In this document: in pieces, positions 1 to 28,766 of the stretch
How the letters are laid out: each line of letters starts with the position of its first letter
Numbering within the stretch: the stretch's first letter is position 1
NCBI RefSeq assembly: GCF_037042905.1
Contig: NC_087245.1
Coordinates: 26,910,001-26,970,000 of the forward strand
Origin: Lytechinus pictus
Taxonomy: Eukaryota
DNA: 60,000 nucleotides
Direction: 5' to 3'
The notes under the pieces: model-generated
The model's database searches: none
The model's input: the letters and a program-made list of their open reading frames with translations, nothing else
Told to the model about the DNA's origin: nothing
Made by a program: the position numbers and the translations under genes

Positions 1-284
1 TGTTTGGAGTAGTTTGACTCGGTACGGAGTCAGTTTTGAGATATGGCTGATATGTTGCTAAATATCCAAAGTAAAATTGCTGATTCGCATATAGTGATTT
101 CCTAAATTACTGCCTATACCTTGCGTTAAAACTCACAGGTCAAGTTCCTGAAGCGGGAACCATAAGATGGCCCTGGTAGGATCGCGTTCCCTGCTAATTG
201 AAGAATTTTTACCTCCCTGATATACATAATATTAAATGGAGTACTCTTGTTGCTTCGTAACGCTGATGCTACTTTAATCCACAG

Positions 285-452
285 CTGCGACATCGAAGTT
301 TATTACTCAACAAAGTCAACACTATGTTTACCAACTGGGTCCATTTGCAGCCGCAGATGAAGCAAGGATCGATTTCTCCATCCAGTCTGCTTGCGAGGCC
401 GAAATCGTTTTTAAAGCTACAACAACAGCTGTCTCGGATAATTATACACTTG
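285..452 (+). CDS. Gene 1 exon, FAMeT-like domain 1, N-terminal half
   Basis: ccacag|...|gtatga; 168 nt; phase 1-1; ATSKFITQQSQHYVYQLGPFAAADEARIDFSIQSACEAEIVF...NYTL. Confidence 0.8.
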
Positions 453-6400: not shown

Positions 6401-9400
6401 GTCATCTGGAATCGACCCATGACATCGATGTCTTCCAGGCTCATATCTATGAGCAATCATCGCTGGAAGAAAAGTTTGAGTACAGTTTCCATCCACTTCA
6501 TGAAAACTACTTCGGCAAGTACATTGAGTTCACAGTCAGCACAGAGGGCGCTGTCTCAATTGCTTTGTCAGCAGACGGAAGCCAACAAGTCGAAATGTAT
6601 GAAATCGGTAAGTCGTTTACTAAAAATCCTTCGCATTTGCCACTTGCAATTAAGGACTGTTTCTTGTACCAAAGGAGTTATTGTGCGAACTTGATGTTCG
6701 GGGGGGGGGGGGTATGGGAGAGAGTTTCACCCTTAATGATGAGGGTGAAATCTGGCCGTTTAATACCTGAATTGAGTCGAGTAGTTAAATAGATTTGTCG
6801 TAATTCGTAAACATTAGTCCCCAGACTAAACGTAAAGTTTGCATATATATATGTTGCCATGTCGACTTAAAAATATATTAAGTCGACATAATAAGAAAAT
6901 GTCGACTTGGCGAGACACACTCTTTCTGGCCATCTCGTCATCAAGAATATCACAGTCTACAGTTCCCATGCTAGAAGACCAAATAAAGAACAAACTACAT
7001 GTATAGAGAGGAAAACATTCATTATACAAGTAGTACGATGTGTTTTCTTATATTGGTTACGCGGTAGGGAATGTTTGAAAAAAATCTAATTTGCCGCATC
7101 ACCTATTTTGGGGGAACAATTTACCATTAAATTTAAGAATTATATCATCATTGGAGACTTTCAAACCTCAACTGAAGTGATATCTTTGTAACAGTATCAC
7201 TTGACACTAAGACGCCCACCTTAACTCTCTTATTCACTCTTTTTTTCTTGTGTGCCTCGGAATATGATATTTCTAGATGGATGTTTTATTGTAATCTATG
7301 TTTTCAGTATCAATCTATATGTACCTTTTAAATATGTATATGTTTACCTATTTAGCATTTTTTATTTGATTTTGATTGTAAAAAATCAAGGATAAGACCG
7401 CCATAACCATGTGTTTAATGACGTTAACTGACAGTTGCTGGTATTTGTCTTCATCCTCCACTGATTTTATTGTATTACTCTAATTTTAAATATTTATATT
7501 TATTATGCTGGTGTTGTTGTAGTTTTCTGGTTTTATAGTTGTTTTCTCTGTATGTTGTATGTAATCTTTTACTCTTTTTATATTGTATAATATTGTAATA
7601 CGTTTGTATTTTAATAGGGCTCTCTTGTAAAGCAGTTTTGTACTGAAGAGACCACCCTGGAAAAATAAAACAAAACAAATAAATAAGTATAAATGCTTAT
7701 TAATATAATCAATCCCGTTCCCATATTTTACTCACATTGCAGTCTTTAGCGGTAACAGGAACTCGGACTTGTCGCTACGGAGATGCAGCTCGTGTGAAAC
7801 TCTTGTTAGTTCCTACGAAGAAGATGGATTTTTATTGCCAGGGAGAGAAAGGTATGGAACTAGAACTAATTGATTAATTACACACAAATGTTACCGTGCA
7901 CACACGACACGGGCGATTTGCAAAATACAAACATGGCAAATGAGAGAGTCCATCACACCACACAATAGGACATAATCTTTTGTATTACATGTAATATCAA
8001 ATATTTCGATTTTTGTAGATGTGATAATAAAGAAGATCATGGTTGAATTTTAATAGGGAACCATGTGTAACCATGCATGTCAAAACAAGATTTATAAGCA
8101 AAAACAATCTAAAACAGATATTGCTGTTATGATTTGGCAAATAAAACTATGTATACCTCAAGTGGACTGTTGACAAGTCAATTGCATTTCCATTATTTCA
8201 ATTGTAAAGGAATTTCTTGATATCCGTATATGACGGTACTATCAGGGTGTATGATGAACAGTTAACCGATCCGCTGTTAGAATGGACAGATCCGGAACCT
8301 CTACCGGTTAGCTTTGCCGGATTCAGCATGAAAAGTTCGTCCCACTTCGCTTACACTACAGGTAAAATCAGTGCATTTTGTGTATGATTATTGTTCACAG
8401 ATACATGAAATAGCGCACATTCATTTGACATTATCTATAAAGTTATTTTTGTGTATTTATACGTCAATAAGTTAACTTTTGGTAACCATACTATTTGCCG
8501 TCCCCTTCCGTACAAAATCCGAAATTAAGAAAATATGTAAATGAGAGATCACCTGTGATTAGGTGAATCCAGAACGTACAATTTGTGAACCTGTCTGCTC
8601 TGTAGTCACGTGATAAATAATGGCATATTGACCTATCACTGATTCCAGTAATATAAACTATATAATTATATAAGTTTCGAATCGATCATATATTTTATAT
8701 TGTGTCATGATTATTATTACTGCCCCCCACGAAACCAAAAACAGCTCCATGAAATCTATACAGGGGTGACAAGGTAGGCCTTCAATGTTTGATTCACTCA
8801 GATATAATTTATTATGAGAGCGCCTACTTCATACTCTACCGTCATCTCATTTAATATATATTTAGAAAATGTTCATTTTCTTTCACTTATTTCATTAACC
8901 GACTACCATTCAACATCTGAAACAAGTTTTTTCCTATCAATATTATTGCAAACTCAGTACCCACTGCTGGCTCTTACACCGATGAAGCCCCCTCCCCTTA
9001 TTTCTACGCCGTTCAACTTGCCACTGATAAGCCATGGAAGGTCGTTTTGTCAACATCAGGTGAACCAAAAGGGGAAGTGTATGAAATAGGTAAGAGCATT
9101 GACAGAGATATATACGATAGCCGCCTTAATAACTAATATTCAGATTGAAACGATGATCTTCCAATCTGATTTTCATATTAGACTTTAAATTCGAAAGTTA
9201 GCCCAAAAATTAAGGGACTGGGGTATGTTTGTAACGTTCCTAGATGATTGTGGATGTGCAGCAAAGGTCTGCTGGTATTGAGTGGTGCCCCGCTAAGCAG
9301 TAGATAACAGCCTCTCATTCCGATCGTTCAATTTATTTTTCAGATTTATTTACAAATCGAACACAATATTTTTTCTTGGATGCACGGCAGACATTCATTT

Positions 9401-10644
9401 AATTTATTATGAAAAAAATAATAAAGCTTATATTAATATTGTAATACGCGTTTCTTTACTTTTTATTAACTAATTTAAAAGTGGCGCGATTTCAGTGACT
9501 TATGACAAGAGCTTTTTATCTTGTTATTGATAAGAATTAAAAAGAAATTACGCCGGAAAGGACTTCTAATGATTTAATTACTTTAATCCTAAGCTGTTAT
9601 GATAACGATCAACAATTAACTTTTTCAAACCAATAAACAGAAATGTAAAACATTTACTAGACTTTTCCAAATTGTAAAGTATGTATTCTACCTCATAAAT
9701 GCTATATATTTGTTGTTTTGAATATCCCAAGTTCTATTGGGAGTCATTGTTGTTTCTTTTTACTTGCAGTTTATGGGACTGGAGAAAATACAAGAAGCGA
9801 GATCCGAAGAGGCAATGTACCCGTTGCCTCGGTTGAAAATGCCGGATTGGTATCCGCTGTGAACCCGAACTACTATTGGTTTGAGGTTAAAAACAATGTC
9901 ATCAAAACCGGCTTGTTTGATCCGGATTCTTCTCAACAATGTGAACTGTTTCTTGGTTACTACGACGCGGATTTCATCCCGGTACCCCTCTTTCGGATAT
10001 CCACCACTGATCCAGCAGCGGTATTCAATTTCGGTTTTGGGAGCGGACTTTCTCCTCGGTTGGAACCCGGGAATAGCATTTGCGAGCCGTATGCTCACGC
10101 TGTTTACAGCTCGGAAGAAGTTGAAATGGAGGGGAAAGAAGGCGCAGTCAGCGATGGTGAAAGTTCTGATCATGAGAGTAAAAGTAAAGAAAAAAGGAGC
10201 AGTAATGAGAGAAGGAATGAGAACGTTAGTAGTAATGAGAGTGGGAGTAATGAAGGGACGAGGAGCAGCGAACAGAGTGGAAGAAGTCAAATGAAATGGA
10301 GCAGCGAAGAGAAAGGGGGAAATAACGAGGTTAGAAGCAGCAATGAGAAAAGTGACAGTGATGAGACTAAAAGCAGCGGAGAGAGTGGAAACAGTGAAGA
10401 AAAGATAGAGAACGATGGAAAGAACAAGAATAAGAAAAATAAAGGAAGCAAAGAAGACAGAAGCAACAGTGAGGAGAAGAGAGAAAACGAAGGGAAGAAC
10501 AAGAAAGGGGAAAGTAAAGAAAGCAGTGACGAGGATAGAAGCGGCAGTGAAGAGAAAAGAAATAGTAAGGAAAAGAGCTCCAAAGAGAAAGGTAAGAAGA
10601 AAAACAGAGGTAAAAAGAAAGGAAGCAGTGAAGAAGGGAAGTAG
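285..10644 (+). CDS. Multi-exon gene, 5' end not identified: five tandem FAMeT-like (Methyltransf_FA-type) domains, T/P-rich linker, S/E/K-rich C-terminal tail; ~1016 aa visible
   Basis: Exons 285-452, 1229-1546, 1770-1901, 2124-2297, 2925-3242, 4414-4602, 5524-5802, 6401-6607, 7743-7851, 8210-8361, 8958-9089, 9770-10644. All have AG/GT boundaries and join into one open frame ending at TAG 10642-10644. The repeated pattern F-x-V...I-A-L-S...Y-E-I-x-I-G...N..S...F-W-I...D-P-x-P-L-x-V-x-(Y/F)-x-G-F was recognised by eye as FAMeT-like. Confidence 0.85.
1229..1546 (+). CDS. Gene 1 exon, FAMeT-like domain 1, C-terminal half
   Basis: tcatag|...|gtatat; 318 nt; IGTDNNQMTII...TPDILS...FEDLEPLHVMYAGFRT...GVW. 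Confidence 0.85.
1770..1901 (+). CDS. Gene 1 exon, Thr/Pro/Ala-rich linker
   Basis: ttgcag|...|gtaagt; 132 nt; VTTTAKAVKQPTSQVVPQPGPTENGS...EEEP. Confidence 0.8.
2124..2297 (+). CDS. Gene 1 exon, FAMeT-like domain 2, N-terminal half
   Basis: tttcag|...|gtaagt; 174 nt; ...YEVGPLDSSRPSRFEFLVTAAAGAVVSLSP...SYKL. Confidence 0.85.
2925..3242 (+). CDS. Gene 1 exon, FAMeT-like domain 2, C-terminal half
   Basis: ctgcag|...|gtacga; 318 nt; IGVNGNSETHL...TDSILT...YEETYPLEIGWAGFGT...GQW. Confidence 0.85.
3934..4143. mobile_element. Palindromic MITE-like element in a gene 1 intron
   Basis: agggatttaaaataaatc..ggactgtagtta is inverted at taactacagtcc..gatttattttaaatccct. Confidence 0.6.
4414..4602 (+). 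CDS. Gene 1 exon, FAMeT-like domain 3, N-terminal half
   Basis: tgacag|...|gtaagt; 189 nt; ...KFSFSVKAEQNALIALSN...VIQI. Confidence 0.85.
5108..5336. mobile_element. Palindromic MITE with 3-bp CAG flanks (PIF/Harbinger-like), interrupted by a 52-bp insert
   Basis: Long arms (agctgttcgtaagttaagagcgactttaagaacga / tcgttcttaaagtcgctcttaacttacgaacagct); CAG at 5105-5107 and 5337-5339. Confidence 0.7.
5265..5316 (-). mobile_element. Very short 5'-truncated non-LTR retroposon 3' end with (GAT)n tail
   Basis: Flanked by the direct repeat AGCTT (5260-5264, 5317-5321); ends in gatgatgatgatgatg on the minus strand. Confidence 0.6.
5524..5802 (+). CDS. Gene 1 exon, FAMeT-like domain 3, C-terminal half
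   Basis: ccttag|...|gtaaga; 279 nt; LGVDNNRRSTL...TFWVSIDGNIIGVG...EEPIHAKYIWF...EWKF. Confidence 0.85.
6401..6607 (+). CDS. Gene 1 exon, FAMeT-like domain 4, N-terminal part
   Basis: ccaaag|...|gtaagt; 207 nt; ...IEFTVSTEGAVSIALSADGSQQVEMYEI. Confidence 0.85.
7743..7851 (+). CDS. Gene 1 exon, FAMeT-like domain 4, middle part
   Basis: ttgcag|...|gtatgg; 109 nt; phase 1-2; VFSGNRNSDLSLRRCSSC...GFLLPGRE. Confidence 0.8.
8210..8361 (+). CDS. Gene 1 exon, FAMeT-like domain 4, C-terminal part
   Basis: gtaaag|...|gtaaaa; 152 nt; phase 2-1; NFLISVYDGTIRV...PLLEWTDPEPLPVSFAGFS. Confidence 0.85.
8958..9089 (+). CDS. Gene 1 exon, FAMeT-like domain 5, N-terminal half
   Basis: actcag|...|gtaaga; 132 nt; ...YFYAVQLATDKPWKVVLSTSGEPKGEVYEI. 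Confidence 0.8.
   Translation, partial: YPLLALTPMKPPPLISTPFNLPLISHGRSFCQHQVNQKGKCMK
9770..10644 (+). CDS. Gene 1 last coding exon, FAMeT-like domain 5 C-terminal half plus S/E/K-rich tail
   Basis: ttgcag| acceptor; VYGTGENTRSEIRR...YYWFEVKNNVIKTG..., then a low-complexity tail to TAG. Confidence 0.85.
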
Positions 10645-11166
10645 TAACAATTAACAAGTTCAAATTGTGATAGGTCTGCTGGTTTATACCATTGATTTAC
10701 GCCAACAGCATTCTGATTTTGCTCAGAACTAATGGTGCCACATGCCAGTGTGTTAATGCTTTCACTCTCCTATTTTTGGTCAACGGTAACAAAGTGGTTT
10801 CAATCATTCGAAAATTCTTTAAATGCATTAATGAACTTGTTTGTTTGATCTTCTCACTGCTTGCTGATTTTTTTTTAAAGAATGATTAATATGATCATAC
10901 AATCATGTCGGTTTTTAATCCGCGGTTCAATGTGAGCAATGGAAAGAAAAACGATATTACGTATTGGTGTACTCGAAGAATTATCATTTGAAAAAAAATC
11001 ATATTCCAGTTCACTTAATGCGCTCTTTCTGTCTGTCTCACCCTCTCTCTTTATGATGCTTTTGTGGTGATCTTATGTTGTATCATATTCCATCTTCGAA
11101 TTGAATATGCCATTACCAGAGTTAGTTGAGACTTTCACAATTTATATTACCATGAATACCGATACC

Positions 11167-11202
11167 AATAAATCATCACGTTTCAAGAGCAGACTGAATA
11201 AA
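11167..11202 (+). promoter_or_regulatory. Candidate polyadenylation signals of gene 1
   Basis: AATAAA at 11167-11172 and 11197-11202, followed by a T/GT-rich tract at ~11215-11250. Confidence 0.45.
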
Positions 11203-13396
11203 AAAACTGTCTCATTTGCTTTTTTGCTTCAGTTCGTAGTGTATTTTTCTGATAATTCACAACAAAAGAATGAACATCACAATATATATGTAGAAATATT
11301 AGTAACAAGATTAAAACTTGATTTACAAAACTCTTTATTTTACTCACGGAAGATGTCAATAATAAGACAGCATAGGCCTATTAAGAAATGTACATAATTA
11401 ACATATCGTAAATGTATCTTCACAAAAACATGCGTTGCAATTAAAAATGAGGGTACTTTTATCATGATTGACAAATTTGACGCTCAAACCGGTCAGAAAT
11501 GATCCGAATGCACTTATGCAGACTTAGCTTGTAACCAAATACAACACAATTTAATGGTTTAATTCACCAAATATGGAGAAACACATTTGTACGCCTATAT
11601 CCGGATGAGGAAAACAAATTTATTTGCCAACCCATAAAATGTGTGTAATCTTGGTATTTTTTTCCTATTCATATTGTAAGAAGTACTTACCAAGACAAGC
11701 ATTTTATTCATCTTTCTTTATCAAATTGAAATGTCCATAACAATCTTATACGGTAGAAGGAAACTGGGGTTTGTAAGCTTAAAGTACATGTTCAAAATTA
11801 AGGCTTAACCATTATCACTGTTTTACTTTGTATTGTTACGTTCCAAGTATATTTATATCATGTTTTCGTAATTGTGTAATTGAATGTGTAACGGAATTCC
11901 CGCTTTTACGTCGTGCATGAAACTTTTATTCCTAATTGGAAAAACCACATGAAAATTACAATTGAGTGACATTGATATCAATAGTAATTCCAAACACGAC
12001 TGGGAGACCATTTAACAAACCGAAACTTTAATATTCTAGCAGCGTTGAGATCGAAAACTAAAGGAGTGGTCTATAATCCATGGTTGAATGCTTATTACCG
12101 ATTAAAGACCCGAAAATCAAAATATTGTTGACAAAAAGAATCGCTTTATGTATAAAATCTCTTATCAACCGAAAGCTATAACATAATGGAAAAAAAAATA
12201 ATCAAGATATTTTTTGGAAAGATATATTCCACCATCGTCATTAAACATTTTGATTGACATTTATTACCGTTAACATCATCTTTACAAGTAATTGTCAACC
12301 AACAGAAGTAAACTAGAAGTAATATTCGCATGTATATATCAATCAAATCTTGAAGCAACTTAAGAGTCTCGGACAGTGCAATTATGTCGAAACTAATCTT
12401 GGCAATTTAAACAGCTTTAAACTGCTAATCCATAAACATTTGCAGCATATATAACTGGAAAAATGCATCCAGATAAGGAAATTAATTGGAAAATAATGAA
12501 TTGTTCTTTATAATAACGAGTCCGAATTCAATGTAGACGTTCTTTAAAGAGCCAAGTTGAGCGTGATAATTTTGTTTTTCATCGGTGCGGTTTGTTCGCG
12601 TAAGTGCCAGTGTACTCTGATATAATGCCTATATCATCAAATGACTACTGCATTTATTAACCGTGCATTATGAATCATATCATATCTTGGTTACATGAGA
12701 ACGATCAAGGAAAGGGGAACTTTGTCTGAAAATAATATTTTTTTTTTGAATTATAATATCCCTGCTAGAAAGAGCGCAGTGTCGCAAAGTGTGTTCAAGT
12801 GTGGTTCCCATAGTCCATGCTAAATTTTCAGTATGAAGATGATTTCACACCGTTGATGCCTCCAGTGCGACTGTCAAGTGTGCTGGAATAGTTGAATAAG
12901 TGACCATACGAATCAAACTGTTAAAATTCTCAGTTATGATTTGTCTGGTGAAGTATAGTCCCCCCTATTGGATGCACATGTAAAATCATTCATGGCAACT
13001 GGAACAATGTTCGTAGAAGCCTGTATGATAACCATGAGGTTGATGTACAGGGAATGCAATGTAAAGTCATCTTGAATTTTATGAGGAAATGGCACTTATT
13101 AGCATCTGCATTACACATATGAGAGTTGCTCTTTAAGTGACTTCACATAATTCAAATTGAGAAAATCAGATCTATGTTATGCTTTGGTGAATTTGGACCA
13201 AACCTTCAGTAATATACAGTACTTCTCTCATTGTATTATCCCTTTATTCAAAGCAATGCAAAATCAGGGCGAACAACCCCTTGAAATGGAGTCATTGAGA
13301 ATGATGTTCAGGACAAATACTAAATTATTTGGAGGGGTTCAAGTATTGTAATAGAACGAAATGTCAGCAACCGATTAATATATGATTCTATTTTAA

Positions 13397-13893
13397 AAGG
13401 GAAGTTCACCTGAAGAAAAGTTTTTGATAAAAATAGCAAAAAGAATAATAAGAAATATTGGTGAAGGTTTGAGGAAAAACCGTTAAAGATTAAGAAAGTT
13501 ATTAGAATTTTAAGTTCGTGATTTGTGGCATCATAAACGAGCAGCTTCCCCATATGTTATGTAATACAAAATGCATGAATTTCATTTTCCAACAATTCCT
13601 GATGATTTATTTTTATTTTCTATTTAAGATCGGGTGTGAAATGATTTGTCTATTGATATACAAAGGTACAGGTAATAACTACTTTCAATTTTCTGAGAAA
13701 ATGACATTTCATTGATTTTTTTTTACAATTCACTATGTAGGAATGCTGCTCGCATATGACGTCACAAATCAAATAATCAAAATTCTATTTACTTTTTAAT
13801 TCTTTGGATTTTCTTCAAACCTTCAGCAATATTTTTAATGATTTTTTTTCTGCTATTTTTACAACAATCTTTTTGGCAGGGTGAACTACACCT
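13397..13893. mobile_element. TTAA-flanked MITE (Kolobok/piggyBac-type target site), copy 1
   Basis: ttaa|aagggaagttcacc ... ggtgaactacacct|ttaa; subterminal inverted ggtgaaggtttgaggaaaa / ttttcttcaaaccttcagc; homologous to 50404-50876. Confidence 0.75.
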
Positions 13894-15612
13894 TTAAATG
13901 CGAACATTGTAAGACCCTAAATAATTCTTGTGTTGCATTCACGAATAGAAGATGAATTTGTGGAATAGATCACCCAACTGAAAAGAACACGGGTTTACAT
14001 AATGTGCTCACAAGCATAGTGGACTATGCAGAGATATGATTCTCACTGTTAAAACCTTCAAGTCTAACAGTGTGATGATACGTTCACACTATGGACACCT
14101 CTGCACTTTGAGTGTTTATGTTCATGAACAACTACATGAAAAATGTTATTCACAGCTTTAAAATGTTCATATTTGACCATGTGAAGATGGTGTCACATTT
14201 TGGGACGCACTAAGTGGCAATGTTCTTTTTTAGCAGGGCGAAGTGTGAATAATACTTCAAATCAACCAGAAATATGGCATTCAACCGAACAGTACAATTA
14301 AAATGTTATACATTACATACACTAAAACAGCTTATGATGCAGTGTCCTCGTGTGATGTGCAACGTGGTTGAAATGAAGACAGCTAAAACAAAACGCTTCG
14401 GCTTGCAGGCCTAAATTGAATAACTTAACAGAATGTAAACATCTTTGACAGAGCGCTTAATGTACAAACGATCTTGCAAAATGTCGGCATGTCTTTGTGA
14501 TATACATCCATGGCGATAGCGATCTCCGAAGCGGGATAACTGTACGACTTCACAGAAGATCACATCTGCGCCTCATACCCCCACATTGCAATTAGGTAAA
14601 TGGACGACAAACTCTTTCTTAATTGAAAGCAGAAATCAATTAATCTTCTCTCGCAGTGCAATGTCTATAAAGCAGCAAATAAGTTTAATGCAATGAAGAG
14701 AGAGCAAATGTCCGTTGCATAAAAAAGCTTTCATTCAGTATAGACAAATATTATACTGTAACCTGTCGTTTCGTGTACTTTGCTCAGTAAACCCACATTG
14801 CAGGCCTATTATTCGCTTCATTCATGTCATCATGGTCATAGGCCTTATTAATTTCACCTAGAAGATGTGAATCAGGTAGCACCAATCCGAAAGGCTGAAA
14901 ACCACGTCGACGACTCTAAACACTGATCCATTCAATATGTGATATAGTCGAAGTTATCCACCTTTATGAGTCGAATCAACCAGAGCGAGCCAGTGAAGTT
15001 GTCTTAAATGTTGATCAAAGTGCGTCTTGATACAAAACAACCTCCCATCATTAGGCCTCAGTTTAAAGATGCTCGCACGTTCCTGATCCCAGTTTTCCCT
15101 TACATGCAAATCATTGGTTTAATATGCTGGAATAATGTAGGAATATAAAAAAGTGCATCCATATTACAGTAAGAAGGCTCTGAAAAAGCCGTTGAGATTT
15201 TCTTGAAGTTCATCTTAATAACCGAGCAAAAGATAGTCGTGCAGTGCTTGAATGGACCCGAACATTATTTTTATAAATGCTCTGAGAATTCAGTAGGTTC
15301 CGTGGCTTTACGAAGTATTTGGAATTCACCACGAATATAAAAAAAAACGAGGATTTTTCATTCCTACCACATTTCTACCGATTCAGTCTCTAGTGACTCT
15401 CTTGTAGGATGGGTATAAGTATCACCAAAAGTGAACCATGGTGTAATGTATGGCGAGTTGATCAGTATAATGCTGGTGGTAGGTCATGATCTCTGAAACC
15501 GAATGAAATCGTCACTTTTCGATTCAGTCAAAGCCTCTGCTTCCGAGGTTCCATCTCGCTTGGAAGAAACGTGATCAAAATAATTATTCATTCGAGTCTA
15601 AAAATTTTCAGT

Positions 15613-15671
15613 TCAGCTCTCGTCTTCCTCCTCTTCCTCTAAGAATGAGTCAGATGTTTTCTTCATAGCTT
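15613..15671 (-). CDS. Gene 2 last coding exon
   Basis: TTGCAG|; EAMKKTSDSFLEEEEEDES*; parallels the starts of exons 2 and 3. Confidence 0.8.
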
Positions 15672-18600
15672 CTGCAAACAGGAAAAACAAAGATTTTTAT
15701 GAAGACGATTAATATGTTGTAGGTATTCATTTCATTATATATTTTACACACAATGGTTTTTTATACTATATATTATATTTGTCACCAAAGCCATTGACTT
15801 TGTTTTATTATAATCATCATCCGTATTATCCATTACCATATTTATACTACTGTTCCTTTTCATGTTAACAAATCAAATTCTATAAATCATTTTCGTAATA
15901 TCTTATTCAGCTCAGGTTAAAACATTCAGTGTAAATGTATTCAGGGAATGAGAACATCGGAAGAAAGGGGAGAAAGCAATTAAGACTGGAACGGAAAAAA
16001 AAAAGAAGATGGGAAAAGGAGTTTTAAAATGAGAAAAGGTGAAATACGAAAAGAAGAGGAAGCGCAAACCGAAATAGGCCTCAATCAGAGAAAAAAAAAT
16101 AGGTAAGAGCCAGATGAAAGAACCAGAGGATTGAATGTTAGAATATTACCTGAAATGATGTGTTTGGGTAGATCCACCTCTAACGGAGTCAGTTGTCGCT
16201 TCAAGATCTTGGTATGATGTGGCGATACTTTCCTCCTGGCCGAAGAAGGGCTCCCACTGCCGTCTTTGTTACCTGAGTAAGCCGACTTCTTGAAGAGTGA
16301 TTGTCTTTGAAGGGTAGGCGAACCCATATCCTTCGGACCATCCTGGATGTTTCTTCCGGCATTGGACTTGACTGTGCCATTCGCTCCCCCCACAAGGTCC
16401 AACGAAGATGCTTCACGATTGTTGTTATTGCAGTTCACAGAGGTGATGATATCTGGTCGACCTGACACATCCACTTCAGCAACGTCGTTTTTGGTGTTCT
16501 CTTCAGTTACCGCACCACTGCTGGCATTGGCTGCGTTTTCGGTTTCATCAGACGAAGATGACAGTTTTTCCGTTGATGACTGATTGTCATCCACTTGACC
16601 ACTTGTTGCTTCTGACTTCTGTTGTCCACACTCGCTAGGTTTTCTCTCTTCCGTTTCCTCCTCCTCCTCCTCCTCCTCTTCCTCCATAATACCTTCACTT
16701 GATTTCTCTGCCATGATATCTAAAATAAAAGGAAGATTTCCATAACAATAATTTTTGCTCGTATTTTTTATTTCAGGGATATCTGGAATAAGTTTTGTCC
16801 AGCCTCAATATGAAATCTTCCAATTGCTACATTGTTACATATTGTTAAAATGATTTTTTTTAAGAAAAAAAACTAGTCGAACTCCCAAAGACCGCATACG
16901 GGCTCAACTCCCGCATAATCTTAATGAAAGTTGCAGTTTAACGACATTATATTATTAGAACATTTTATTTCCGCAAGTATTCCAAACATCTTTAGACGGG
17001 ATGGCCTAGATAACTGAATTAATGAGGGGGGAAATAGAATCTACTGGTACCTTTTAGATTCTTGGGTACATCCAATTTGATTGGCGTCTGTCTGCGGACA
17101 AACTTGCGTGGGTGATGGGGAACAGTCTGAACCCGAGAGTTACTTGGTTCCGGTTCAGGACTCTTCGTGAAAGACTTTGATACTGTTGGCGAAAGGAAAT
17201 GCTTGTCCTCGGCGTTGAAATCATCCTCCTCTTCGTCATTCTCATCCCCACCCTCGTCTGCATCTGCTAGCTTCTCCGCATCTTCGTGCGAGATCTCCTC
17301 ACCTACGTCTGTCCGGACGACGATCGTTGGGCTACCAGTGTCAGTACTCAACTCGTTGGTATGGCCATCATCTGCCAAGCCGATATGAAGATCTTTCGAG
17401 CCTGATATTCTTGGCGACGGGGTATCAGCGTCACTGCTCTCGATGTCTTCAATGACGAGGACGTCAGCAGTGGTTCCTTGCTTTAGTGACACTGGTACAG
17501 GACTTTGATCTCCGTCAACAACACGCTCTTCCTCGTCTTCCTCGAATGATGCGGCCATCATTTTCTTTGATGCCTTGTCTGTATATAACAAAACAAACAC
17601 AGGTATAAATGTATTGGATTCAAACAAACATTACCTACAAGTAATATCATAATGTATTAAGAGATACCGTGATGATACGATCGTTCACGGATGGCACCTG
17701 CGTGTTTATTAGGCCTACTCTTTTTTATGGAGGGAGGGGTGGGGAGATGATTCAAATATTTTCCGTATTAATTTTGTTAGAAATTAACCAGTGTTATTTA
17801 TTCAATAAATTTTCAAACAAATATAATATATCATGCAGCTCCGATGAGCGAAAATCTTCAAAAGCCATATATGTTATTATAGTGCATACTGTAACTACAA
17901 GTGATTTAGCACAAGGCGTTTCGACATTTATACTTCACACAATTGACAAACAGAACAAATAGACCAAAACAAGGTGATCATTTCAAATCTGTATTTGCAA
18001 TATTTCCTACCGGTGTTACGCTCAACAAAGCTTAAATGCGAAATATTTGCTCAGGTGAAAATTCAAACTATCAATATGAGGTATGATATTTTGGAGTTCC
18101 ATCGAACAAAAAGCAATAAAATATCTTATTCATATTCCTTAAGACGTAGATACTAGTCTTGTTACAAAGTCCTCATTATCATCCAACATGTTCTCTTTCG
18201 AAAGGAATTTCCAAACTAAACGTAACTCCTTACGATTTAAGAATAGTTTCATTAACATTATTCATGCAAGTTTGAAAATCATAATGACAATTATTGTCAC
18301 TTGCATACAACAATAATTAGTATTAAGCTTATTTCTTCGTTTGACACTGCAACATGTGTAATAAATGAAAGTTATTGTGATTGCAATGGAGGTGCAACTT
18401 TTGTTATTACAAAATATTACACACATTCATATTTTTACTGTACAAATAATATTATTTGTACAGTAAAAAAATGATATGGGGATAGTCTCGCACAAAGATG
18501 GAAATGTAGGTTTATTCAGATGTCAATATAATCCCCTACCAACTTTAGTTCTTTCTAAATAATATGACGTTTTAGGGGCTTGTTAAATGAAGGTGTAAAG

Positions 18601-21191
18601 TAATGCAACCTATATGGAATAACGCAAGCTTTGAGAAAAAGGATTGAGATATATTAATGCACGGCATAACACTCGTATCTAAAATGAGAGAATACTTTGT
18701 ATTCTCTCATTCACTCGGAATATTCCCCTTCCCTTCTATTTCCCTATGCACAAGTACTCTGCGAACCAACTCACGCAATTGTTGCCAAGGCAATAAGTGT
18801 AAATGACACATTTTTGCTGAAGTAGTTTAGCAGAATGCAATTTTGTTGTGATTGCATTTTTACAAAATATTAATTGCAATTAAACACGGAGGTTGTGGTT
18901 TTCATTCTATTCTCAAGTGGTTCAAGCTTATCTTTTGTCACACCTTCAATATGAATTTCTTTCCACAAAATGACGTTAATATCCCCCGAAATCATTTGCA
19001 CTGGAAGATTGTGATTTGTATATCAGAAATATGTATTGACTATACCAACTTGGAAACAGTGAAGATATTCAATTCTCATGTCTTTGTACCTGCCCGTTCT
19101 TCAAAATATGAAAGATTGACGGGAATCGTTCGAAACAACCAAAATGATTTACATGCCAGTATCTGGATTAAAAAGTCTAATGAATATATCATCACTATGC
19201 TGACGGTGATGTCCATGCATAAAAAAAATACCAACATCAAAGTTAACCATGACCGAAACATCCATAAATCGTAATAGTTCTTAAACCAATCCATTATGCA
19301 TGGTTGTGAACCGCCCATTTATTCCACATGTTCCACGCTTACATCCTTTGACCAGTGTTAAGTCGAAATCTGTGAACAAATTATCGGAAGCCAAACATGT
19401 TATTTTTTGGTTAAAACTATTTTTATTGTGTTCACAGTGCACTTTCACCGTGCTGTAATGGCGAAGAAAACCAATTAATTATACTCATACATTATTGATT
19501 ACTGACGAATGAGCTGATAAATCTAACCCATACATTTAGTGATTTATGTCACAATCGGCTCACCATAGTCAAACCCCAACTTCAGACTAGAGTTTGAATT
19601 AAACCCGACTTCAGAATAATGGCCTTTGAGTTTGCTTCAAAGACTGCACTTTTTTGTAATAAAGCTTGGAGGAAAGCGTGCGCCAAGGAGATGATGCGAT
19701 GTGCCATTTACAGAAAGCCTTTAAATATATCGTCACACGTCCAATCAAGTAATTAGTGAGAACGAGACAAAACTCATTTATTATGCGATTCTGTCAGTTG
19801 AGAGGAGGCATTGGTATAGTGGTCATATTTGCGTTTGATCATTATCATTTTATCATGACATTACTGTAATGTCATGATGTGTGAGTGTGTGTGTGAGCGT
19901 GTGGGTGAGTGAGGGTGCTTGTATGTGTGTGCATATCATTTTCAATCAATGTGTACTGGGGTGTACAGATTATCATCATAAGCATTATAAGTCAAATAAT
20001 TTCATGTTATTTTCAAAACCATAACAATGAACCGCATAATGAATGAATATGTATATGTGGTGTGGCAATGAGTCAAAATATAATGAGATATGCCTTATCG
20101 TGCAGTTATTTTTTGTATGCTAAAGCTAGCGTACTTTTGTTATCCTTATGATCCATCAACATAAAAGCAACAAAGAATTAGAAAGATGTTAATATAAAAA
20201 AAATCCTGCCTGGATGCCCTCCTAGTTATTATGGATATTTTAACACGAATCTCAAATTATAACATAAAATTCGTGTTAAGATATCCATTATAACTAGGAT
20301 GGCATGTTAGCAGGATAAATTATGAATATCTTAAAATATGTGGAAGGTTACAAATTATAGAGTGCATATAGTTTAACTCTTTTTTTATGATCCTAGCTTC
20401 GTTGCGAAAATGTTTTAAGCAAGGAGAAAGAAACACCGTCTTGTGAACATAATACATACACATTTAAAATGTCTGTTGTCAAATTCGTTCAAAGAAATAT
20501 AATTTGTGGATGAGATTTTCTCTTACTAGTAATTAGGCAAAGTCCGGTGTTTTTTCAAACGAAATTCGGAAAAGTACCATTTAAACTATCCCAATTGCTA
20601 AAGAAAATTTATCTCGCCCAGTTTCATAAAAGTTAAAATAGCATTCGTCAGACAAATTTGGAAATTACATCAATAAGAAGTTTCATTCTTGTGGCAAATT
20701 CCTATATCCAAATCTGGATATAAAAATGTAGCAACTTTTATGTCACACTTGGCAGGTGGATGATCAAATCACTTCCAAATTTTTTACCTAAGATTGTACT
20801 TACCAAGTACAGATTTAGGCACTCGAATAGCCATTGGAGTAGGTCTTCTAACCAAAGGCCTTGATGGATTCTGTGTTGACCTGACCTGCCATGGTTCACT
20901 ACTACTTGATGACCCTGCTATAGGATGTTTCACATACTCATGTGATTTGGCCGCTGCACCGTTTGGTATCTCCGTTACTTCACCCCATGAGAGGACGGGA
21001 TGAGGGCGTCCTTTAAAACCCGAAGGCATCGACTGTGACTCTTCAGAAGCACTTGCGGAATGAGATAGCTGTTGGTTAAGACCGTTAAGAGACAGTGCCT
21101 TCAAAGACTGCACTCCTTGCGATGTCTCCTGGTCTGATGATGCAGTTGGCATGCTGCCAACATCACTTGAACACGATTCTTGTGACGTCAT
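15613..21191 (-). CDS. Uncharacterised acidic, disorder-like protein (514 aa) with three (R/K)R-x(1-2)-TP...VPK...poly-E motifs
   Basis: Coding exons 21191-20804, 17578-17051, 16719-16150 and 15671-15613 total 1545 nt. All introns are GT-AG and phase 1. The ATG is in AAAACTATG context with an in-frame upstream TAA near 21253. TGA lies at 15613-15615. Confidence 0.8.
16150..16719 (-). CDS. Gene 2 coding exon 3
   Basis: TTTTAG|...|GTAATA; 570 nt; DIMAEKSSEGIMEEEEEEEEE...KILKRQLTPLEVDLPKHIIS. Confidence 0.85.
17051..17578 (-). CDS. Gene 2 coding exon 2
   Basis: ATACAG|...|GTACCA; 528 nt; DKASKKMMAASFEEDEEE...RKFVRRQTPIKLDVPKNLK. Confidence 0.85.
18432..18469. repeat. Perfect 38-bp palindrome
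   Basis: tttttactgtacaaataat|attatttgtacagtaaaaa. Confidence 0.9.
20203..20316. repeat. ~114-bp imperfect hairpin (small MITE-like) in a gene 2 intron
   Basis: atcctgc..atgcc.tcctagttattatggatattttaacacgaat / attcgtgttaagatatccattataactaggatggcat..gcaggat. Confidence 0.75.
20804..21191 (-). CDS. Gene 2 first coding exon; the exon probably extends as 5' UTR to the acceptor at 21629
   Basis: MTSQESCSS...RPLVRRPTPMAIRVPKSVL|GTAAGT; upstream acceptor TTTTCTGCAG| at 21630. Confidence 0.8.
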
Positions 21192-24100
21192 AGTTTTACT
21201 TGAACTGTAGGCACTTAATGGGGGAAGTCTGGTGTGATTTTGTGTGATCCCTTACGATCTTGGGACTCTCCCTTTTGAGGAGGTTACGATGAATTTTCGC
21301 TTTTGAATCTACTGTCAGAGTATTTCTGTGTGATCTTGCTCACCCCAATGTTCTAATGCCATTTGATTGATTGCCCGCTTCTGCAGTCCGTAACATCCAC
21401 TCTTCTCTGGCCTTTAGAGTAAGTGATAATATCGAGTGTTGACGGTGACGATATAGGTAGCCGGATACACACGCTTCTGATTGTCAAGTGCTAATTTCGA
21501 AGAAGTTTGCCGTAACCTATCGTTAAATTTAGCCAATAACCTGAGCCGAAAAACCAGTCTTGAAAAACGGCATGGACGAACACTTGAAGATATAATTAAC
21601 GAATGAGGGTACTCCAGCCTCGGCGTAGCCTGCAGAAAATGAACAAATGAGAAAAACTAATTTATTTAAATGCATTGAAATGTGGTTTTGCCTATCTCTA
21701 ACTTACACATATTAATTCCAGTGCACAATAATTTCATGAACTATATATCGCTTAACGACTTTAACAGAAAGCAGATTCCAAGTGTGGCGATGTTGACATC
21801 ATATGATTCTCTTTTCGCCAATCAGAATAGATATTTAATGCAGTGAAATTGGGTTAAGTAATTTCCCCGTTTCAACGTTGCTCGGTCATGACGGTCGTTG
21901 ACTTTTCATCTTTGACAATCTGAGCCCTACTCCACCCTCTCGTACGCAGGATACGGGAAAGTTAACATTACTTTGTATCAATTACTTTATCAATCGACTG
22001 CAATCTTTCAACTTTCACTATACGCTTATGAATATCAATCAAAACAGAGCTGTGTCTTTCTATATGAATATCAAATTGGTATTGATGCTATTGCACGCAC
22101 ATTAAACACACATACACATACAAAATAAAATTAAAAGGTTCATGTGTTGAACATTTCATATATCTATAGTCGCATCAATGTAATGAGACAAAAATATAAC
22201 ATTCTTGTTATCGTTCTGATTCAGGAATCCCGAATGCAGCGGAGTGTCACAACTTAAACATGGTGATTTTGTTTCGAGAATGTTTCTAGAAAATCAACTT
22301 CTATCACCCTTACATAAAATAAGTCTACTGTGATAGCTATCTTAAGACTTCACGTTCAATAAACGTTTTCGTGCTCCTTTCCACATGATCCAATGTATGC
22401 CGTGTGATCCTGCACACATTCTTCTCTTCTAAATTCAACAAATTGATTAAAAACACACACTTTGAGATTCTCTAAAATGTTTGGGACCTTGGTAGCATCA
22501 TAACCATTGCTATAACATTCCGGTGAAGATTACTGAAGACTGATATTAGTTGTCCATTTTATTTCAACGCTTTACTATGTTTTTTGTGATCGTGATACAT
22601 TCCCCATCACAATGGTTTTCATCAACAAAGAATGTATTGAATTATGTCGACCAACCAGGATAGAACTCCCGACGTAGATGTTTGTTGTGTTTATCGCATC
22701 TTATTATCGGGGGTTGAAATTGATTTCAAAACAGACTACAGATGAAATCTGTTTCAGGGTGAACAGTACTCTCGTAAAATACTTTGTACTTTAGCCGAAT
22801 TGACATCTCGTAAACACTAGATCTACATAATTTATACACCCACTCCACCATAACACATTTCAATATGTACTCCATCGACACGCCGATCTGAGCCAGAATC
22901 ATTTTTGCTATTTTATATGTGTCAGGCAGGCAGATGATAATGGGCTCAACAGAAGAAACATGACACTTCGGTAAAGATTCCTGAAATAACGCCCACTTAA
23001 AGTGTTCAAAGTTTTACTAAAACTTGAAACGGAAAGATCATTTGGTAGATAACCGGTTTGATCATGTTGATACGAGTGTCCGTGGATCAATATCGAACAA
23101 AGAACAAGAAACAAAAAGACAACTGTATGGAGTACCTACTCGACTGTCACCAATTCGACAGAAGCTAATCTGAACTCGCATATCAATAAACAACATTGAC
23201 CTTTTTATCTCATTTGCAAAAGATGTCCACAAAGTTGATGAATAAAAAGCAACAGCAGAAGATAAGTGCGCGCGGGAGGTTGTGGGTGTGTACAAGTACG
23301 TACGTGGGGGGAGAAAGAAAGAATATAAGATGGGTGTTGTTGAGCATGTCGAGAGCCGCGAAAATGCCTCTTCTATGCACGGCTCGTGAAAGATGGGAAA
23401 ATTAATGTTATGACTGACCTACTTTGGTTTATGACTGACGATAAAAGGGATGAGCTGCCGCACATGGCATTGACTCTGCTCGACATATATAGGGACGGCA
23501 TTGGGTTTCTTGAAATCATCTCGAGCGTCAATAAATCATAATTTCAGAGGGACACCTGGACGAAATGAGTTTTATTAATCCTCACAAATTCTGCTTGGGC
23601 TGAACTAATCAAATAACTTGCCCTGATGAGGAGGTGGAGACGTGCTGATATAGCGGATGGGGCTCGGTTCAGACACCACAGGTCACAAAATAGGAGTACT
23701 GTTAAAGTTGATCTAAAACCCCCTTTCAAACTAAGTTACGATGATCACAGGTTACTATTATGCCAAAGTTACAACGTAATCACGGCCTCCTTGAACTGCA
23801 TTATGCATTATGCTAAAAGAAACAGTTGAAATCTGTGTACATTGCATGTGTTTTAACCGTGAATGAATAAAGTCAAACAAAAATATCAATACCATAGATA
23901 TAGAATTCGATAATGATCCAAGGATACAAAGCAAACACCGACACGCTAAAAAATAAAGCGTCGAGCCTTAGATGGTTATCCACTCTTCACGTTTTAATAA
24001 CCCTTTTCCATTATAACAGTAAATTTCGCAAATGATAAAGAGATTCATCAAAAGGTTTCAATAACAAGTTAACAACCCATTTGTGATTAAAAAAAATACG

Positions 24101-27100
24101 AAGACAATTATGCAAACAAATCGATTCTTTCTCAGGAAATGCATTTTTTATTGATTTCGTTTTGTATGAACGTTGACCGAGATGAGTTTGATTACTTTGT
24201 ATGTTTTTTTGTATTAAGTGTATTAATATATTATCCCCCCCAAAAAAAATCGTTCCAAACCCATAATTTATGTATGGTGGATAGGCATAAATGTACATGT
24301 AGTTATGGACGCTGTGTGCCATTACTTGCGGTTGCGGTGACTGAGTTATAATAATCATTATCTGCTCAATCTGAAATCTGAATATCAACGATTCGAAAGA
24401 ATTCATAAGAATTTTAATAACAGACACACCATGAATAATCTGACACTCTCTTCCGAGGGAAAAACAAAGCAATAGCAAGCATGACGAAGGTAGGATGTAC
24501 GTGTAAAGAATGCCTCTGTCCATGCTGTCAGGGTAAAATACAGTTAAGGCAAAGTTTACAACAACCAAAAATTTGAGTTTTAATTTGACGAATGAAAAAC
24601 AACAACAACAAAGTTCATGACTCATGACTATCCGTGATAGCCGACAGTGGTCACAGTGACCTCATAGATGATAACAATCCGATTATACGACCATTGGTAG
24701 GCCAATATGATCATTATTCGTTTTCAACAGTTTTCTTTATTTAATGAATAATTATGAAAATATGCCTTTGTTAATTCTTACTTCATATGAATGGCTATTG
24801 TATAATATGTTATGAGTCACTATCTGCCTGTGTGAATTTTCAGTTGACTTATATCGTTTGTATGATTGGCACTGAATAATTTAAAAATACTATTACAAAA
24901 CAAAAATGATCATTCTCTGAAGTAAATGGCAATACATGGAGCTTTACATACTTCATGGAATTCGCAATGAATTACATCACAATGCAAGTTGAAATTATTC
25001 ATCAACACATTTTACTCCCATCTTTTCGAACGTTTTTTTCCGATTATATCTTGATGGATCCGACATCATAAAAAGATCGCTCTGAAATATACGACAAAGG
25101 CAATTAATAATTTCGGTCAGTTTTGATGCCTACGTTTTTTAATCTACGTGAAATTAAGAGATATGAACAATTTATCGCTTAATATTTGTGTCCTTTGTCT
25201 CGTAACTTTGAAAAAAAAAAACCGAATAAAGGGGGATGAACAAACAGGCATAGAGCTAAAAAAAAGAGGGGCCTAATTATAATCCTTTCAAATTGATGAG
25301 CTGCATACTGGATAATTGGCTCTCTGCATTATTGATGCATAGTACACACTGGCAGTGGGTGATACATCACCTGCGTACACGGGGAAACCAGGAAAACTCA
25401 ACCACACCAAGGTAAACTCAAGGTAGTACAAGAGGCCAAACATCAAAATGAAAGTGATTTTGTTATTTTCCCTATTTGTTCCTTCCACAAAATGGCTAAA
25501 CTCAAACCTTTTCACAACTATACAGATTTTGACGTATGTGAGTATACCAACCAGTGTTCAAATTTATAAAGATTTCACCCTCCCCATTACCCACATTCCA
25601 TGATAGCCATATTTTGTGTCATTTAATGATCAATGGCGTAATGAGCCAACAATTTAAATTTTCAAGGCCAAATAAGGTTTATCGGGCAAAATTTTAGTAA
25701 CAAGTAACAAGCAAGCAAAATTGTTAACATTTTTGTTACGAAAAACTGATTTTGTGATACATTTTGAGAATCGTGACAATATCATATTTAATCATTCTCC
25801 CCTTTCCTCTTCTTTCCTTTCTCCTTTTTGTCTTGGTCGTAGAACTTTCTTTTCGGGGGGGGGGGGGGACATGGTTCCCCAAGCCCCCATCTATTTGTCA
25901 GTGTCATTGTGGTGCAGTAGATTCTGACAAGTGGTTAGAATGACTTTGGAATTCGACATATACTAGGATATCCGGAATTTGTGGCCTGCACGCTGGCCCC
26001 GAAGTATATTGTGAATCAGGTAGACAGGATCATAGGTTTGGTGTTTTACCATTTAAATTTATAAGTAGATGAGGCTTAAAAATTAAGGGAAAATATTACC
26101 AGAACATTAAAACTCCTTCCTCAGTTTTTTAAAGGTAATAGAGCTATGTTAACCCCTCCCCACCCAACACATACAAAGACTGCCCTTACATTATTCTTCA
26201 CAGCAGCAGAATTTGATATGCAGGGAAAGATTGCATGTGTCGAAATGTTGTAAATTTCATTCATACTCATTATCGAATGTTGTAATGAGCCTACGGCAAT
26301 GTAATTAGTAACGTCACGAGTGTGGCCTGAGTTGGCAGGGTGTGTGAAGAAGTGCGAGCGTACATGGGTATCATGAGAGTGTGCGTGGGTTGAGTTATGC
26401 GTGCGTTTGTGACACGTCGAGATGGCTCGGAGGAGAAGAGTGGATAGACGCATAGACCTTTAAAAGAAGGTTTGAGGAAGAGATAAGGGTGAAAGAGAGA
26501 GAGAGAGGGGGTTGGGGCGAACTCCACACTCTTCAGTGTGATCTATCGATTCAAGTTGTTAGTACAATTACACAAAGGGACAAATACATTAATCACTTTT
26601 TTCAGTGTGCGTAGTTTAAAATTTCACTGAAGAATAATATTTCATCGGTGGACTAATTTCCAAATTTTGTGTATTTGATATAACTCATTCGTTAAAGAGG
26701 TATAGGTATATTATAATATGATATTTTATATTATGGGGATACAACTAATACCACTTGGGGTGTGATAATTGAGACTTGTGTGAAGTAAGATTATTAAATC
26801 AGTCAGAATTGCCTGAAAATATTACGCAAATATGACGTGTATCTGAACGGTGACACAGAATAAAATATGTCTTTAATCTTTCTCGTGATTGTCATATCTA
26901 CATAAATAAAATCATTTTATTTTATTAAATTGAAATATTTTCATATACATGTAGGACCTATCTGAAGATATCAATAAACCAAAAACTAAAATTATCTGGT
27001 CAATTATACTTTATCGAAGTACTTCGGGACTTCGGCTAAAATAAGTTTCAAACGATATAAAAGAACACAAGATGTTTACATTTTCACTTGCCCTTGAAAA

Positions 27101-27815
27101 GGGCAAGTTAAAACAGTTGGCGAGATGATAATACGACTCGTACCACATACAATAATTCCGAAAGAAAATGTACCACTGTGACACATTGAAACTAGAGTAC
27201 TATATTACTTTTGGATATACTGTAAGCGTAGCGACAGGCGCTCAATTGGCCTTGCCACAGAAAAAAACATATTACCCTATGGAATCAATATCATAATATG
27301 TGAGTTAAACAGACAGTCGGATTAATTAATAAAGGAGACACACCGTTCAGTAAGAGCGATAAACAAAGGTCCAAGTATCTTCACGTTGCGTTTTCAACCT
27401 GCGATTTCGACAAAAGATAATGATAGAAGAATTATTCATTTGTTTCTTAATTACATACTCGCACCCTCAAACGATATCTTAATCATCATTCACACTGGAG
27501 GCTCAACGTTACACTATGACATGTATTCTTTTGTCGGCAAATGTTTGGGCTTAAAAAGGACTACCGACACTCGATGTCCTAGCCGACTTTGAGAAAGTGA
27601 GCACTGTGGAAAAGAACATGTACAGTGAAGCATCCACATTGATTCATTCGTCGCCGTGATAACCTTCATAAATAATCATTATTGTCATAATTATAAGTAT
27701 TTGTAGTAGAAGTAGGCATAGATGTGTCATCATTATCATCGTCTCATTACCCTCATCATAATCGCTGTAGTTATCATCAGCATTTATCTTTTGTTGTAAC
27801 GTATGTATAATCTCT

Positions 27816-28278
27816 GAGGCTGTTCTCACTACGTTCCTAAAACTAGTTTACTGGGAACCGGTTCAGAAAGCCAGTTTGGAAGATCGCTTTGCTAGCGTTC
27901 TCACTTGATCACACGAAAGTGGTTTTCAAAATCACTTCACGTATAGCGCTCTTGTTGCTATGGAAACGCTCTCAGTGGGGAGACACGTTTCGCGCGAAAT
28001 TCGAAACCGCAGCATAGGCATTCTACACCTGTCGTGTGGAGTAGCGCGCTCAAAATGTGCGAAGATCGCTTCCCGAAGAACGGTTGTGTCCTCACTTACG
28101 CTAAAACCACTTTTCCGATGCGAAGCGATCTTGAAAACTACATCGCGAGGTGGTCTTCCAAACTGGTTTGGAAGAGCGCTTCCAAGAGCGCTTCGACCGT
28201 TCTCACTTAGCGTTAAACTAGTTTCCACTAAACTAGTTTCCACTAAACTAGTTTAAGGAACTGAGTGAGAACAGCCTC
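27816..28278. mobile_element. GC-richer MITE, PIF/Harbinger-like
   Basis: Perfect 15-bp TIR GAGGCTGTTCTCACT / AGTGAGAACAGCCTC; internal repeats of aaactagttt. Confidence 0.8.
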
Positions 28279-28766
28279 TATGAAGCACTTCTGCTACCAA
28301 CCGCCTGTGCTGCCTTATACTGTCTGTTTTCTGAATCAATACATGTATTAGATTAAATCGAATTGTATCATTGTGTGGACGCTGGTTACTATTAATACCT
28401 TAAGCCCCGTTGAGCTTTATCCTAGACCTCCGCGTAGAGAATCTACGATTATTGTTACTCTCAACAAAGGTTAAGACATACCCTGGGCATTGGCGTCTAT
28501 TCCCAGGGTTATTCTGAAACATTTCACTTGATGGAAGGTGCCCACCATCCATGTAATGTTTCTTCTCTGTTTCCGGTGTATTCCGCCCCACTAATAAAAA
28601 TATATTGACGCAAATTAGTGTTGGTATTACACAATAGTTGGTAAGAAAATCAATTTTTAATGGCGGCTGGAAATGTGGCTTCGTGTCAGACGAGGTCATA
28701 TTAATACATAACGAATGATCGATTGAATCTAGAGAGCGAGTTTGTCGTGCCATGGACCATGGTCGT

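Follow-up and report, generated by a model that had tools for sequence, protein, structure and literature searches.

A 60,000-nucleotide stretch of the Lytechinus pictus genome (contig NC_087245.1, positions 26,910,001 to 26,970,000; this whole stretch is called the window here, and coordinates count from its first nucleotide) contains a minus-strand gene whose coding sequence lies between positions 15613 and 21191. Its product carries three repeats, each of which may, in our tentative reading, hold a docking site for mitogen-activated protein kinases (MAPKs). Joining the coding exons 21191-20804, 17578-17051, 16719-16150 and 15671-15613 gives 1,545 nucleotides and 514 amino acids without an internal stop codon. 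All three introns have GT..AG ends and are in phase 1, the phase that a first-pass annotation of this DNA had proposed. RNA reads from 4 of the 21 listed runs were mapped onto window positions 10800-28700, with approximately 6% of runs X19 and X21 sampled. Each joint was crossed by raw reads from both of these runs in numbers of similar size, and contigs from X4 (organism A) and X9 (organism B) crossed all three. First mates in the exon bins lay almost exclusively on the plus strand, in keeping with an RNA from the minus strand. Together, these data establish that this sea urchin gene is transcribed and spliced. It encodes a protein of 514 amino acids that is acidic and for the most part disordered, and the three spliced repeat units that the first-pass annotation had predicted are present. 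The gene is laid out as follows.

20804..21631, minus strand: first coding exon, with a 440-nucleotide 5′ untranslated region (UTR) holding three upstream ATGs, and codons 1-129, with the ATG at 21191
17579..20803, minus strand: intron, phase 1, GT..AG, 3,225 nucleotides; joint 17578|20804 with 45 raw reads in X19 and 26 in X21
17051..17578, minus strand: symmetric (phase 1-1) exon of 528 nucleotides, with the repeat 1 helix and acidic tail, spacer 1 and the repeat 2 core
16720..17050, minus strand: intron, phase 1, GT..AG, 331 nucleotides; joint 16719|17051 with 50 raw reads in X19 and 26 in X21
16150..16719, minus strand: symmetric (phase 1-1) exon of 570 nucleotides, with the repeat 2 helix and poly-Glu tail, spacer 2 and the repeat 3 core
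15672..16149, minus strand: intron, phase 1, GT..AG, 478 nucleotides; joint 15671|16150 with 60 raw reads in X19 and 30 in X21
15613..15671, minus strand: coding part of the last exon, with the repeat 3 helix and acidic tail and a TGA stop codon
11400..15612, minus strand: long 3′ UTR of about 4.2 kb with an approximate end, minus-strand read depth reaching about 11400

The first-pass annotation had also suggested that splicing could change the number of repeats. Skipping an internal exon would keep the reading frame, but no exon-skipping joint was found among the 15 joints listed for the mapped region, beyond which there are 137 weaker ones. A single main isoform is therefore likely, and minor skipping is still compatible with the reads. 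At the 5′ end, the contigs hold 115-153 extra bases beyond the first-coding-exon start at 21631 that have no alignment in the mapped stretch; they would belong to an additional 5′ exon that is either outside 10800-28700 or failed to align. The upstream ATGs of the 5′ UTR (21192-21631, minus strand) are at 21573, 21396 and 21362. Starting at about 21362, the sequence shares homology with an N-terminal extension of 55 residues that is open in P0024 and is interrupted by stop codons and a frameshift in the L. pictus window. This extension may have been gained or lost, or the region may be an upstream open reading frame (ORF). AATAAA signals occur in the 3′ UTR region at 11930, 11708, 11624 and 11339. 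Multicopy repeats at 13188-13900, 19500-19620 and 27830-28240, one of them within the 3′ UTR, collect reads and contigs on both strands.

The 514-residue product is identical to L. pictus RefSeq entry XP_063955373.1 (P0004), which is named ‘nucleolar and coiled-body phosphoprotein 1-like’. The gene model is thus already in RefSeq, and the protein is named yet uncharacterized rather than unannotated, as had been thought. An older gene model, P0027, runs on into the last intron. The Lytechinus variegatus orthologue is called ‘TFIID subunit 11-like’ and two Diadema orthologues ‘uncharacterized’. A Pfam scan of the full protein, its exons and the repeat units found no family at its cut-off, and the RefSeq names (NOLC1-like, TAF11-like) are therefore probably artefacts of composition. 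NOLC1/Nopp140 and TAF11 have in common with the urchin protein only a Ser/Glu/Asp-rich composition, and no Pfam domain of either is detectable in it. The protein is acidic (97 Asp and Glu against 55 Lys and Arg) and plots as disordered in a charge-hydropathy analysis. AlphaFold gave a mean predicted local distance difference test (pLDDT) value of 40 from a 5-row alignment, a weak indication alone as so few rows themselves depress the value, and placed weak helices at residues 126-137, 227-237, 302-309 and 496-502. No solved structure matched the repeat unit in a profile search of the Protein Data Bank (best E = 0.77, chance level). In the ESM Atlas, residues 270-335 gave one match of 0.75, to a synuclein-alpha-interacting fragment and under the usable level, and residues 455-514 gave none.

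The repeat unit can be written as [LF]-x-R-[RKQ]-x-T-P-phi-x-Phi-x-Phi-P-[KE]-x-Phi, where phi and Phi are hydrophobic, and an alignment of the three copies on L/F-x-R-x-x-T-P needs no gaps. The best ungapped triple of 14-mers from the three long exons scored 113, a value reached by none of 300 block shuffles (mean 59, maximum 76). The spacers are mutually unrelated, as had been claimed from the sequence, with 412-495 of 500 shuffles scoring equally high. The repeats and two conserved islands outside them are located as follows.

20856..20894, minus strand: repeat 1 upstream extension, residues 100-112, 12/13 identical to Diadema
20817..20855, minus strand: repeat 1 core, residues 113-125, with Thr118
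17064..17132, minus strand: repeat 2 upstream extension (residues 279-288) and core (residues 289-301), with Thr294
16166..16261, minus strand: repeat 3 upstream extension (residues 459-477, with the conserved Ser462-Pro and an RKVS site) and core (residues 478-490), with Thr483
20964..20993, minus strand: conserved island, residues 67-76 (LSWG-x-VTEI), 9/10 identical to Diadema, RVxF-like in some orthologues only
17310..17333, minus strand: conserved island, residues 212-219, with Ser212-Pro and a PxIxIT-like stretch whose common match is not above chance (P = 0.14)

Overall identity between the L. pictus and Diadema proteins is 42-43%, and it is unevenly distributed. The repeat cores are identical at 27/42 positions and the upstream extensions at 37/42, against 75/260 in the spacers (Fisher P = 1.5e-5 and 2e-13, respectively), so the motif is kept better than the spacers in orthologues, a test that the first-pass annotation had set for itself. 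The helix segments that straddle the exon junctions (10/39 identical) are no better conserved than the spacers. Using R-x-x-T-P as the sole anchor, we collected 15 sites from seven proteins; as these sites go back to only three paralogues, they do not count as independent observations. Arg at −3, Thr and Pro at +1 are present in 15/15 of these units. Outside the anchor, residues are hydrophobic at −5 in 15, at +2 in 13, and at +4, +6 and +10 in 15, with a basic residue at −2 in 10 and Pro at +7 in 14. The 33 other Ser/Thr-Pro sites of the same proteins gave counts of 3, 5, 2, 9, 5, 0 and 3 at −5, −2, +2, +4, +6, +7 and +10. Exact RRPTP is confined to repeat 1 (5/5 proteins); in repeat 3, position −2 is Gln in 5/5 copies. 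The RRxT pattern for the kinase PKA is thus found in repeats 1 and 2 and is missing from repeat 3. Elsewhere in the chain, Ser212-, Ser259- and Ser462-Pro are kept in 4/4 full-length proteins compared. Further conserved islands lie at residues 168-176 (17441-17467, minus strand), a hydrophobic run with acidic residues that we take to resemble a SUMO-interacting motif, at residues 257-260 (FLSP; 17189-17200, minus strand) and at residues 445-451 in the third coding exon. The segment matching this last island is internally duplicated in the orthologous exon of P0008, where the island is present twice.

What splicing adds to each unit differs in kind from the core. The conserved core and upstream extension sit before the donor site, wholly within one exon, whereas the helix and acidic tail are contributed by the next exon. 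The first-pass view that the repeats are completed only by splicing therefore holds for the helix and tail alone. The acidic run of each L. pictus repeat begins at Thr+24, after a hydrophobic residue, and in 15/15 units of five full-length proteins it starts at Thr+22 to +25, again with a hydrophobic residue before it. Given this constant position and the poorly kept helix sequence, splicing contributes a tail whose spacing and charge are conserved but whose sequence is not. The introns are placed 11, 11 and 12 codons past the Thr, and single-exon ORFs of other records enter intron sequence at the same point. Duplication of a symmetric phase-1 exon is probably the simplest origin of the repeats. 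The earlier view of the protein as disordered and multivalent, with linear motifs that arose through exon duplication, is supported. The protein carries three exon-duplicated modules that, judging from these alignments, have been under purifying selection.

Homologues appear to be confined to one lineage. A profile of five units, searched against 1.84 billion representative sequences, returned eight matches at E ≤ 0.001, of which seven were orthologues or single exons thereof; the eighth, P0011, proved to be an unrelated tandem repeat and was dropped. An 11-unit profile run on 6,685 word-sharing candidates gave 10 matches at E ≤ 10, all orthologues. Every match with a species name is from a sea urchin, and the remainder are closely similar in sequence to these. 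Sea stars, sea cucumbers and chordates were not represented among the named profile matches, although a 33-position profile may miss single diverged copies, and the window holds no match to the unit besides the three known copies. The search that the first-pass annotation had proposed therefore recovered orthologues, but no homologue beyond sea urchins and records closely similar to theirs. These results point to a lineage-restricted, exon-duplicated family of multivalent linear-motif proteins.

We consider it quite possible, if short of probable, that each core is a forward MAPK docking site (D-site) of the ERK/MEK1 type, with its invariant Thr as a possible phospho-switch. The half of the motif that the first-pass annotation had missed, P-phi-x-Phi-x-Phi-P, appears to be its most informative part and is consistent with the rules for MAPK D-sites. 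In such a site, the basic residues at −3 and −2 from the Thr would be followed by Pro at +1, hydrophobic residues at +2, +4 and +6 and Pro at +7. The general rule, comprising basic residue(s), a linker of 0-5 residues and phiL-x(1,2)-phiA-x-phiB (PMC4670726), is matched by 15/15 units in its 2-spacing form and by 13/15 in its 1-spacing form. MEF2A-class D-sites favour Pro after phiB (PMC4670726). In a docking screen, ERK2 showed selection for Pro at library positions 7-9 and 13; the MEF2A class stood out by an aliphatic position 8, and P-x-x-L-x-L was named for MEK1 (PMC10691213). With phiA and phiB at +4 and +6, library positions 7, 8 and 13 correspond to +1, +2 and +7 of the urchin unit, so that an ERK-favoured Pro lies three residues before phiA in 15/15 units, as part of the anchor, and after phiB in 14/15. 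The pattern of the screen library, [RK]-x0-2-[RK]-x3-5-[ILV]-x-[FILMV] (PMC10691213), is matched in this register by 10/15 units, namely all of repeats 1 and 2 and none of repeat 3. The MKK1(1-13) docking peptide contains basic-basic-P-T-P-I-x-L and shares this register, down to the Thr, with repeats 1 and 2 (PMC3073974). The cores also lie in a disordered setting by charge-hydropathy, for which the AlphaFold pLDDT alone would be weak evidence.

If the cores are D-sites, as many as three MAPK molecules could bind to the protein, or a single one could be retained by shuttling among the sites. The protein would then be a scaffold or sponge without catalytic activity, or a substrate with multiple sites, and its conserved Ser-Pro positions 212, 259 and 462 may serve as MAPK targets. 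More speculatively, the invariant linker Thr, which stands between a basic and a hydrophobic half, might act as a switch whose phosphorylation frees the MAPK, with PKA or PKG as candidate kinases at repeats 1 and 2, and an R-x-x-T-P kinase or the MAPK itself at all three. Such a switch would have a precedent, because PKA phosphorylation of a Ser within the kinase interaction motif (KIM) of PTP-SL frees ERK and p38 (PMC2168101). Both partner and switch are read from motif rules. A fuller scheme, which we regard as distinctly unlikely, would make the protein a sea-urchin-specific, non-catalytic ERK buffer with three Thr-gated docking sites, one for each duplicated exon; the conserved upstream extension of every site would match it to a different kinase, so that cAMP, cGMP or calcium releases or clusters ERK stepwise, for example during egg activation or early development.

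Several points weigh against the D-site assignment. The patterns are loose, with approximately 1.2 matches expected per shuffled protein, and the fit was recognized only after the motif had been seen. Repeat 3 misses the two-basic screen pattern in 5/5 copies in the +4/+6 register. Both MAPKs in the screen selected Leu at the two core positions, phiA and phiB (PMC10691213), and the urchin units have Leu at +4 in 8/15 and at +6 in 3/15, the rest being Ile or Val. In the KIM of HePTP the spacing of the sequence is the same, but phiB, Val31, comes two residues later. A D-site also leaves unexplained why −5 and +10 are invariably hydrophobic, as well as the helix and acidic run at a fixed distance and the repeat-specific upstream extensions, which are better conserved than the cores; together these suggest a larger interface of approximately 45 residues. 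A complex prediction with an invertebrate-type ERK stand-in (L026) and residues 278-312, made with no alignments, gave a score of 0.02 and a mark of 0.34 and was used neither for nor against the assignment.

Such an interface invites the possible but doubtful explanation that a module of about 45 residues (extension, hydrophobic-x-R-x-x-T-P, strand, helix and acidic run) binds some other partner, the likeness to a D-site being incidental. The partner could be, for example, a CAMK-group kinase, with the module as pseudosubstrate, or a DYRK-type kinase, with the module as substrate. This would account for the 15/15 invariance of the hydrophobic −5, Arg −3, Thr, Pro +1 and hydrophobic +10, for the 37/42 identity of the extensions, for the acidic run at +22 to +25 with a hydrophobic residue ahead of it in 15/15 units, and for the low-confidence helices after each core (126-137, 302-309 and 496-502). 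CAMK-group sites suit the hydrophobic −5 and Arg −3, and Pro at +1 hinders their turnover. However, the CAMK and DYRK consensus patterns need neither hydrophobic residues at +2, +4 and +6 nor Pro at +7, and the unit matches no solved structure or Pfam family. The idea raised by the first-pass annotation, that the protein is akin to PP1 inhibitor-1/DARPP-32, or to G-substrate, so that a Thr-Pro segment phosphorylated by PKA or PKG blocks PP1 or PP2A, seems rather unlikely even if the avidity of three sites replaced the RVxF motif. G-substrate carries two such Thr-Pro sites and is not known to have an RVxF motif. After phosphorylation by PKG it inhibits PP1 and PP2A (PMC7809303, PMC10869263, PMC13643276). 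The exact RRPTP of repeat 1 (5/5 proteins), the acceptor Thr in 15/15 units and an N-terminal R-L-S-W in 3/6 proteins covering that region speak for such an inhibitor. But inhibitor-1 requires a second subdomain, R8KIQF12 (PMC5758809), and a strict RVxF or SILK match (patterns from general knowledge and PMC9813921), including a KIQF-type subdomain about 25 residues before the Thr, was found in 0/8 proteins. Pfam gave no match, inhibitor-1, DARPP-32 and G-substrate are absent from the profile matches (8 at E ≤ 0.001; 10 from 6,685 candidates at E ≤ 10), and without a basic −2 in repeat 3 the RRxT-P site is limited to repeats 1 and 2 (10/15 units). The kinship claimed earlier is not borne out, and the protein does not appear to be a PPP1R1 family member.

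The LxVP-like end of each core and the PxIxIT-like stretch in spacer 1 would suit a calcineurin substrate or regulator, an assignment that we find quite improbable. The loose form L-x-[ILV]-P (10.1101/632547) is present in repeat 2 of 6/6 proteins holding that repeat, and the PxIxIT-pattern match at residues 213-218 is kept in 6/6 proteins covering it. Yet the loose form is otherwise seen only in Diadema repeat 1, repeats 1 and 3 mostly having Ile or Val at the required Leu, and the strict pi-Phi-L-x-[VPL]-[PK] (PMC5156906) occurs in 0/15 cores. Column shuffles attain the shared PxIxIT match in 13.7% of cases, and the Thr stands 4 residues ahead of the motif, against a minimum N-terminal distance of 20 (PMC5156906). 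Least credible, indeed far-fetched, is that the repeats are functionless leftovers of exon duplication or that the gene model is an artefact. Most of the protein is of low complexity, and the profile searches found no homologue outside sea urchins, but the junction reads and the identity of cores (27/42) and extensions (37/42) over spacers (75/260; P = 1.5e-5 and 2e-13) already largely refute it. Motifs of the beta-thymosin/WH2, calpastatin, 14-3-3, FHA and Polo-box types were also considered and dropped, as their defining residues, checked by eye against the general patterns, are lacking.

The neighbouring DNA includes a plus-strand, multi-exon gene at 278-10641 with repeated Methyltransf_FA (PF12248) domains and a Ser/Glu/Lys-rich tail; 5/9 of its scanned ORFs match PF12248, one of them above the cut-off. 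It lies tail to tail with the 3′ UTR of the three-repeat gene and is a useful synteny marker. A LINE-type reverse transcriptase fragment at 45628-46572 (minus strand) and, at 54497-55444 (minus strand), a Tc1/mariner-like transposase broken across two frames are also present.

Should the D-site reading be correct, duplication of a single exon would have given an animal lineage a protein dedicated to multivalent MAPK docking, with a phospho-switch in every site. Such a protein would offer a clean natural example of how motifs multiply and how cross-talk is gated, in a sea urchin open to genetic work. The analysis also corrects a database name that misleads. The interest of the protein is tempered by a gene model already in RefSeq, a family that looks narrow and a partner predicted from sequence. 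We found no paper citing any of four accessions belonging to the gene and, among the papers listed, none on the protein by title or abstract start, in a search that covered subscription journals poorly. Multivalent D-site proteins are already known, and what would be new is an endogenous, domain-free and exon-triplicated one with Thr-Pro in each linker.

The closest parallels are D-sites of the MEK1/MKK1 and MEF2A types (PMC4670726, PMC10691213, PMC3073974), which share with the urchin units a basic cluster, a 3-4-residue linker with Thr-Pro, an alternating hydrophobic triplet followed by Pro after its last residue, and a disordered setting. The urchin protein differs in having three copies and no catalytic or folded domain, and its units often have Val or Ile for Leu and add the invariant −5 and +10 positions, the helix and the acidic tail. 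The KIM of PTP-SL, STEP and HePTP (PMC2168101) likewise places a phospho-acceptor two residues past an Arg pair inside a MAPK-docking motif, but the acceptor is a Ser without a following Pro, the hydrophobic register is two residues longer and the motif is joined to a tyrosine phosphatase domain. Inhibitor-1/DARPP-32 (PPP1R1) and G-substrate (PPP1R17) are also acidic and disordered, with basic-x-Thr-Pro phospho-sites, and have the RRPTP of repeat 1 in common; the urchin protein has three sites rather than one, no PKA site in repeat 3, and neither RVxF nor profile similarity. As for disordered scaffolds with multiple D-sites, Toxoplasma GRA24 (PMC3782045) has two KIM repeats, with repeated MAPK-docking motifs, a similar length and no homologues in close relatives, but is a parasite protein that acts on host p38. 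The NHE1 tail (PMC4833948) holds three candidate D-domains in one chain, of which one is used, together with F-sites. Neither is proposed as a homologue of the urchin protein, which, in contrast to both, is encoded by an animal's own gene in which every duplicated exon carries one motif.

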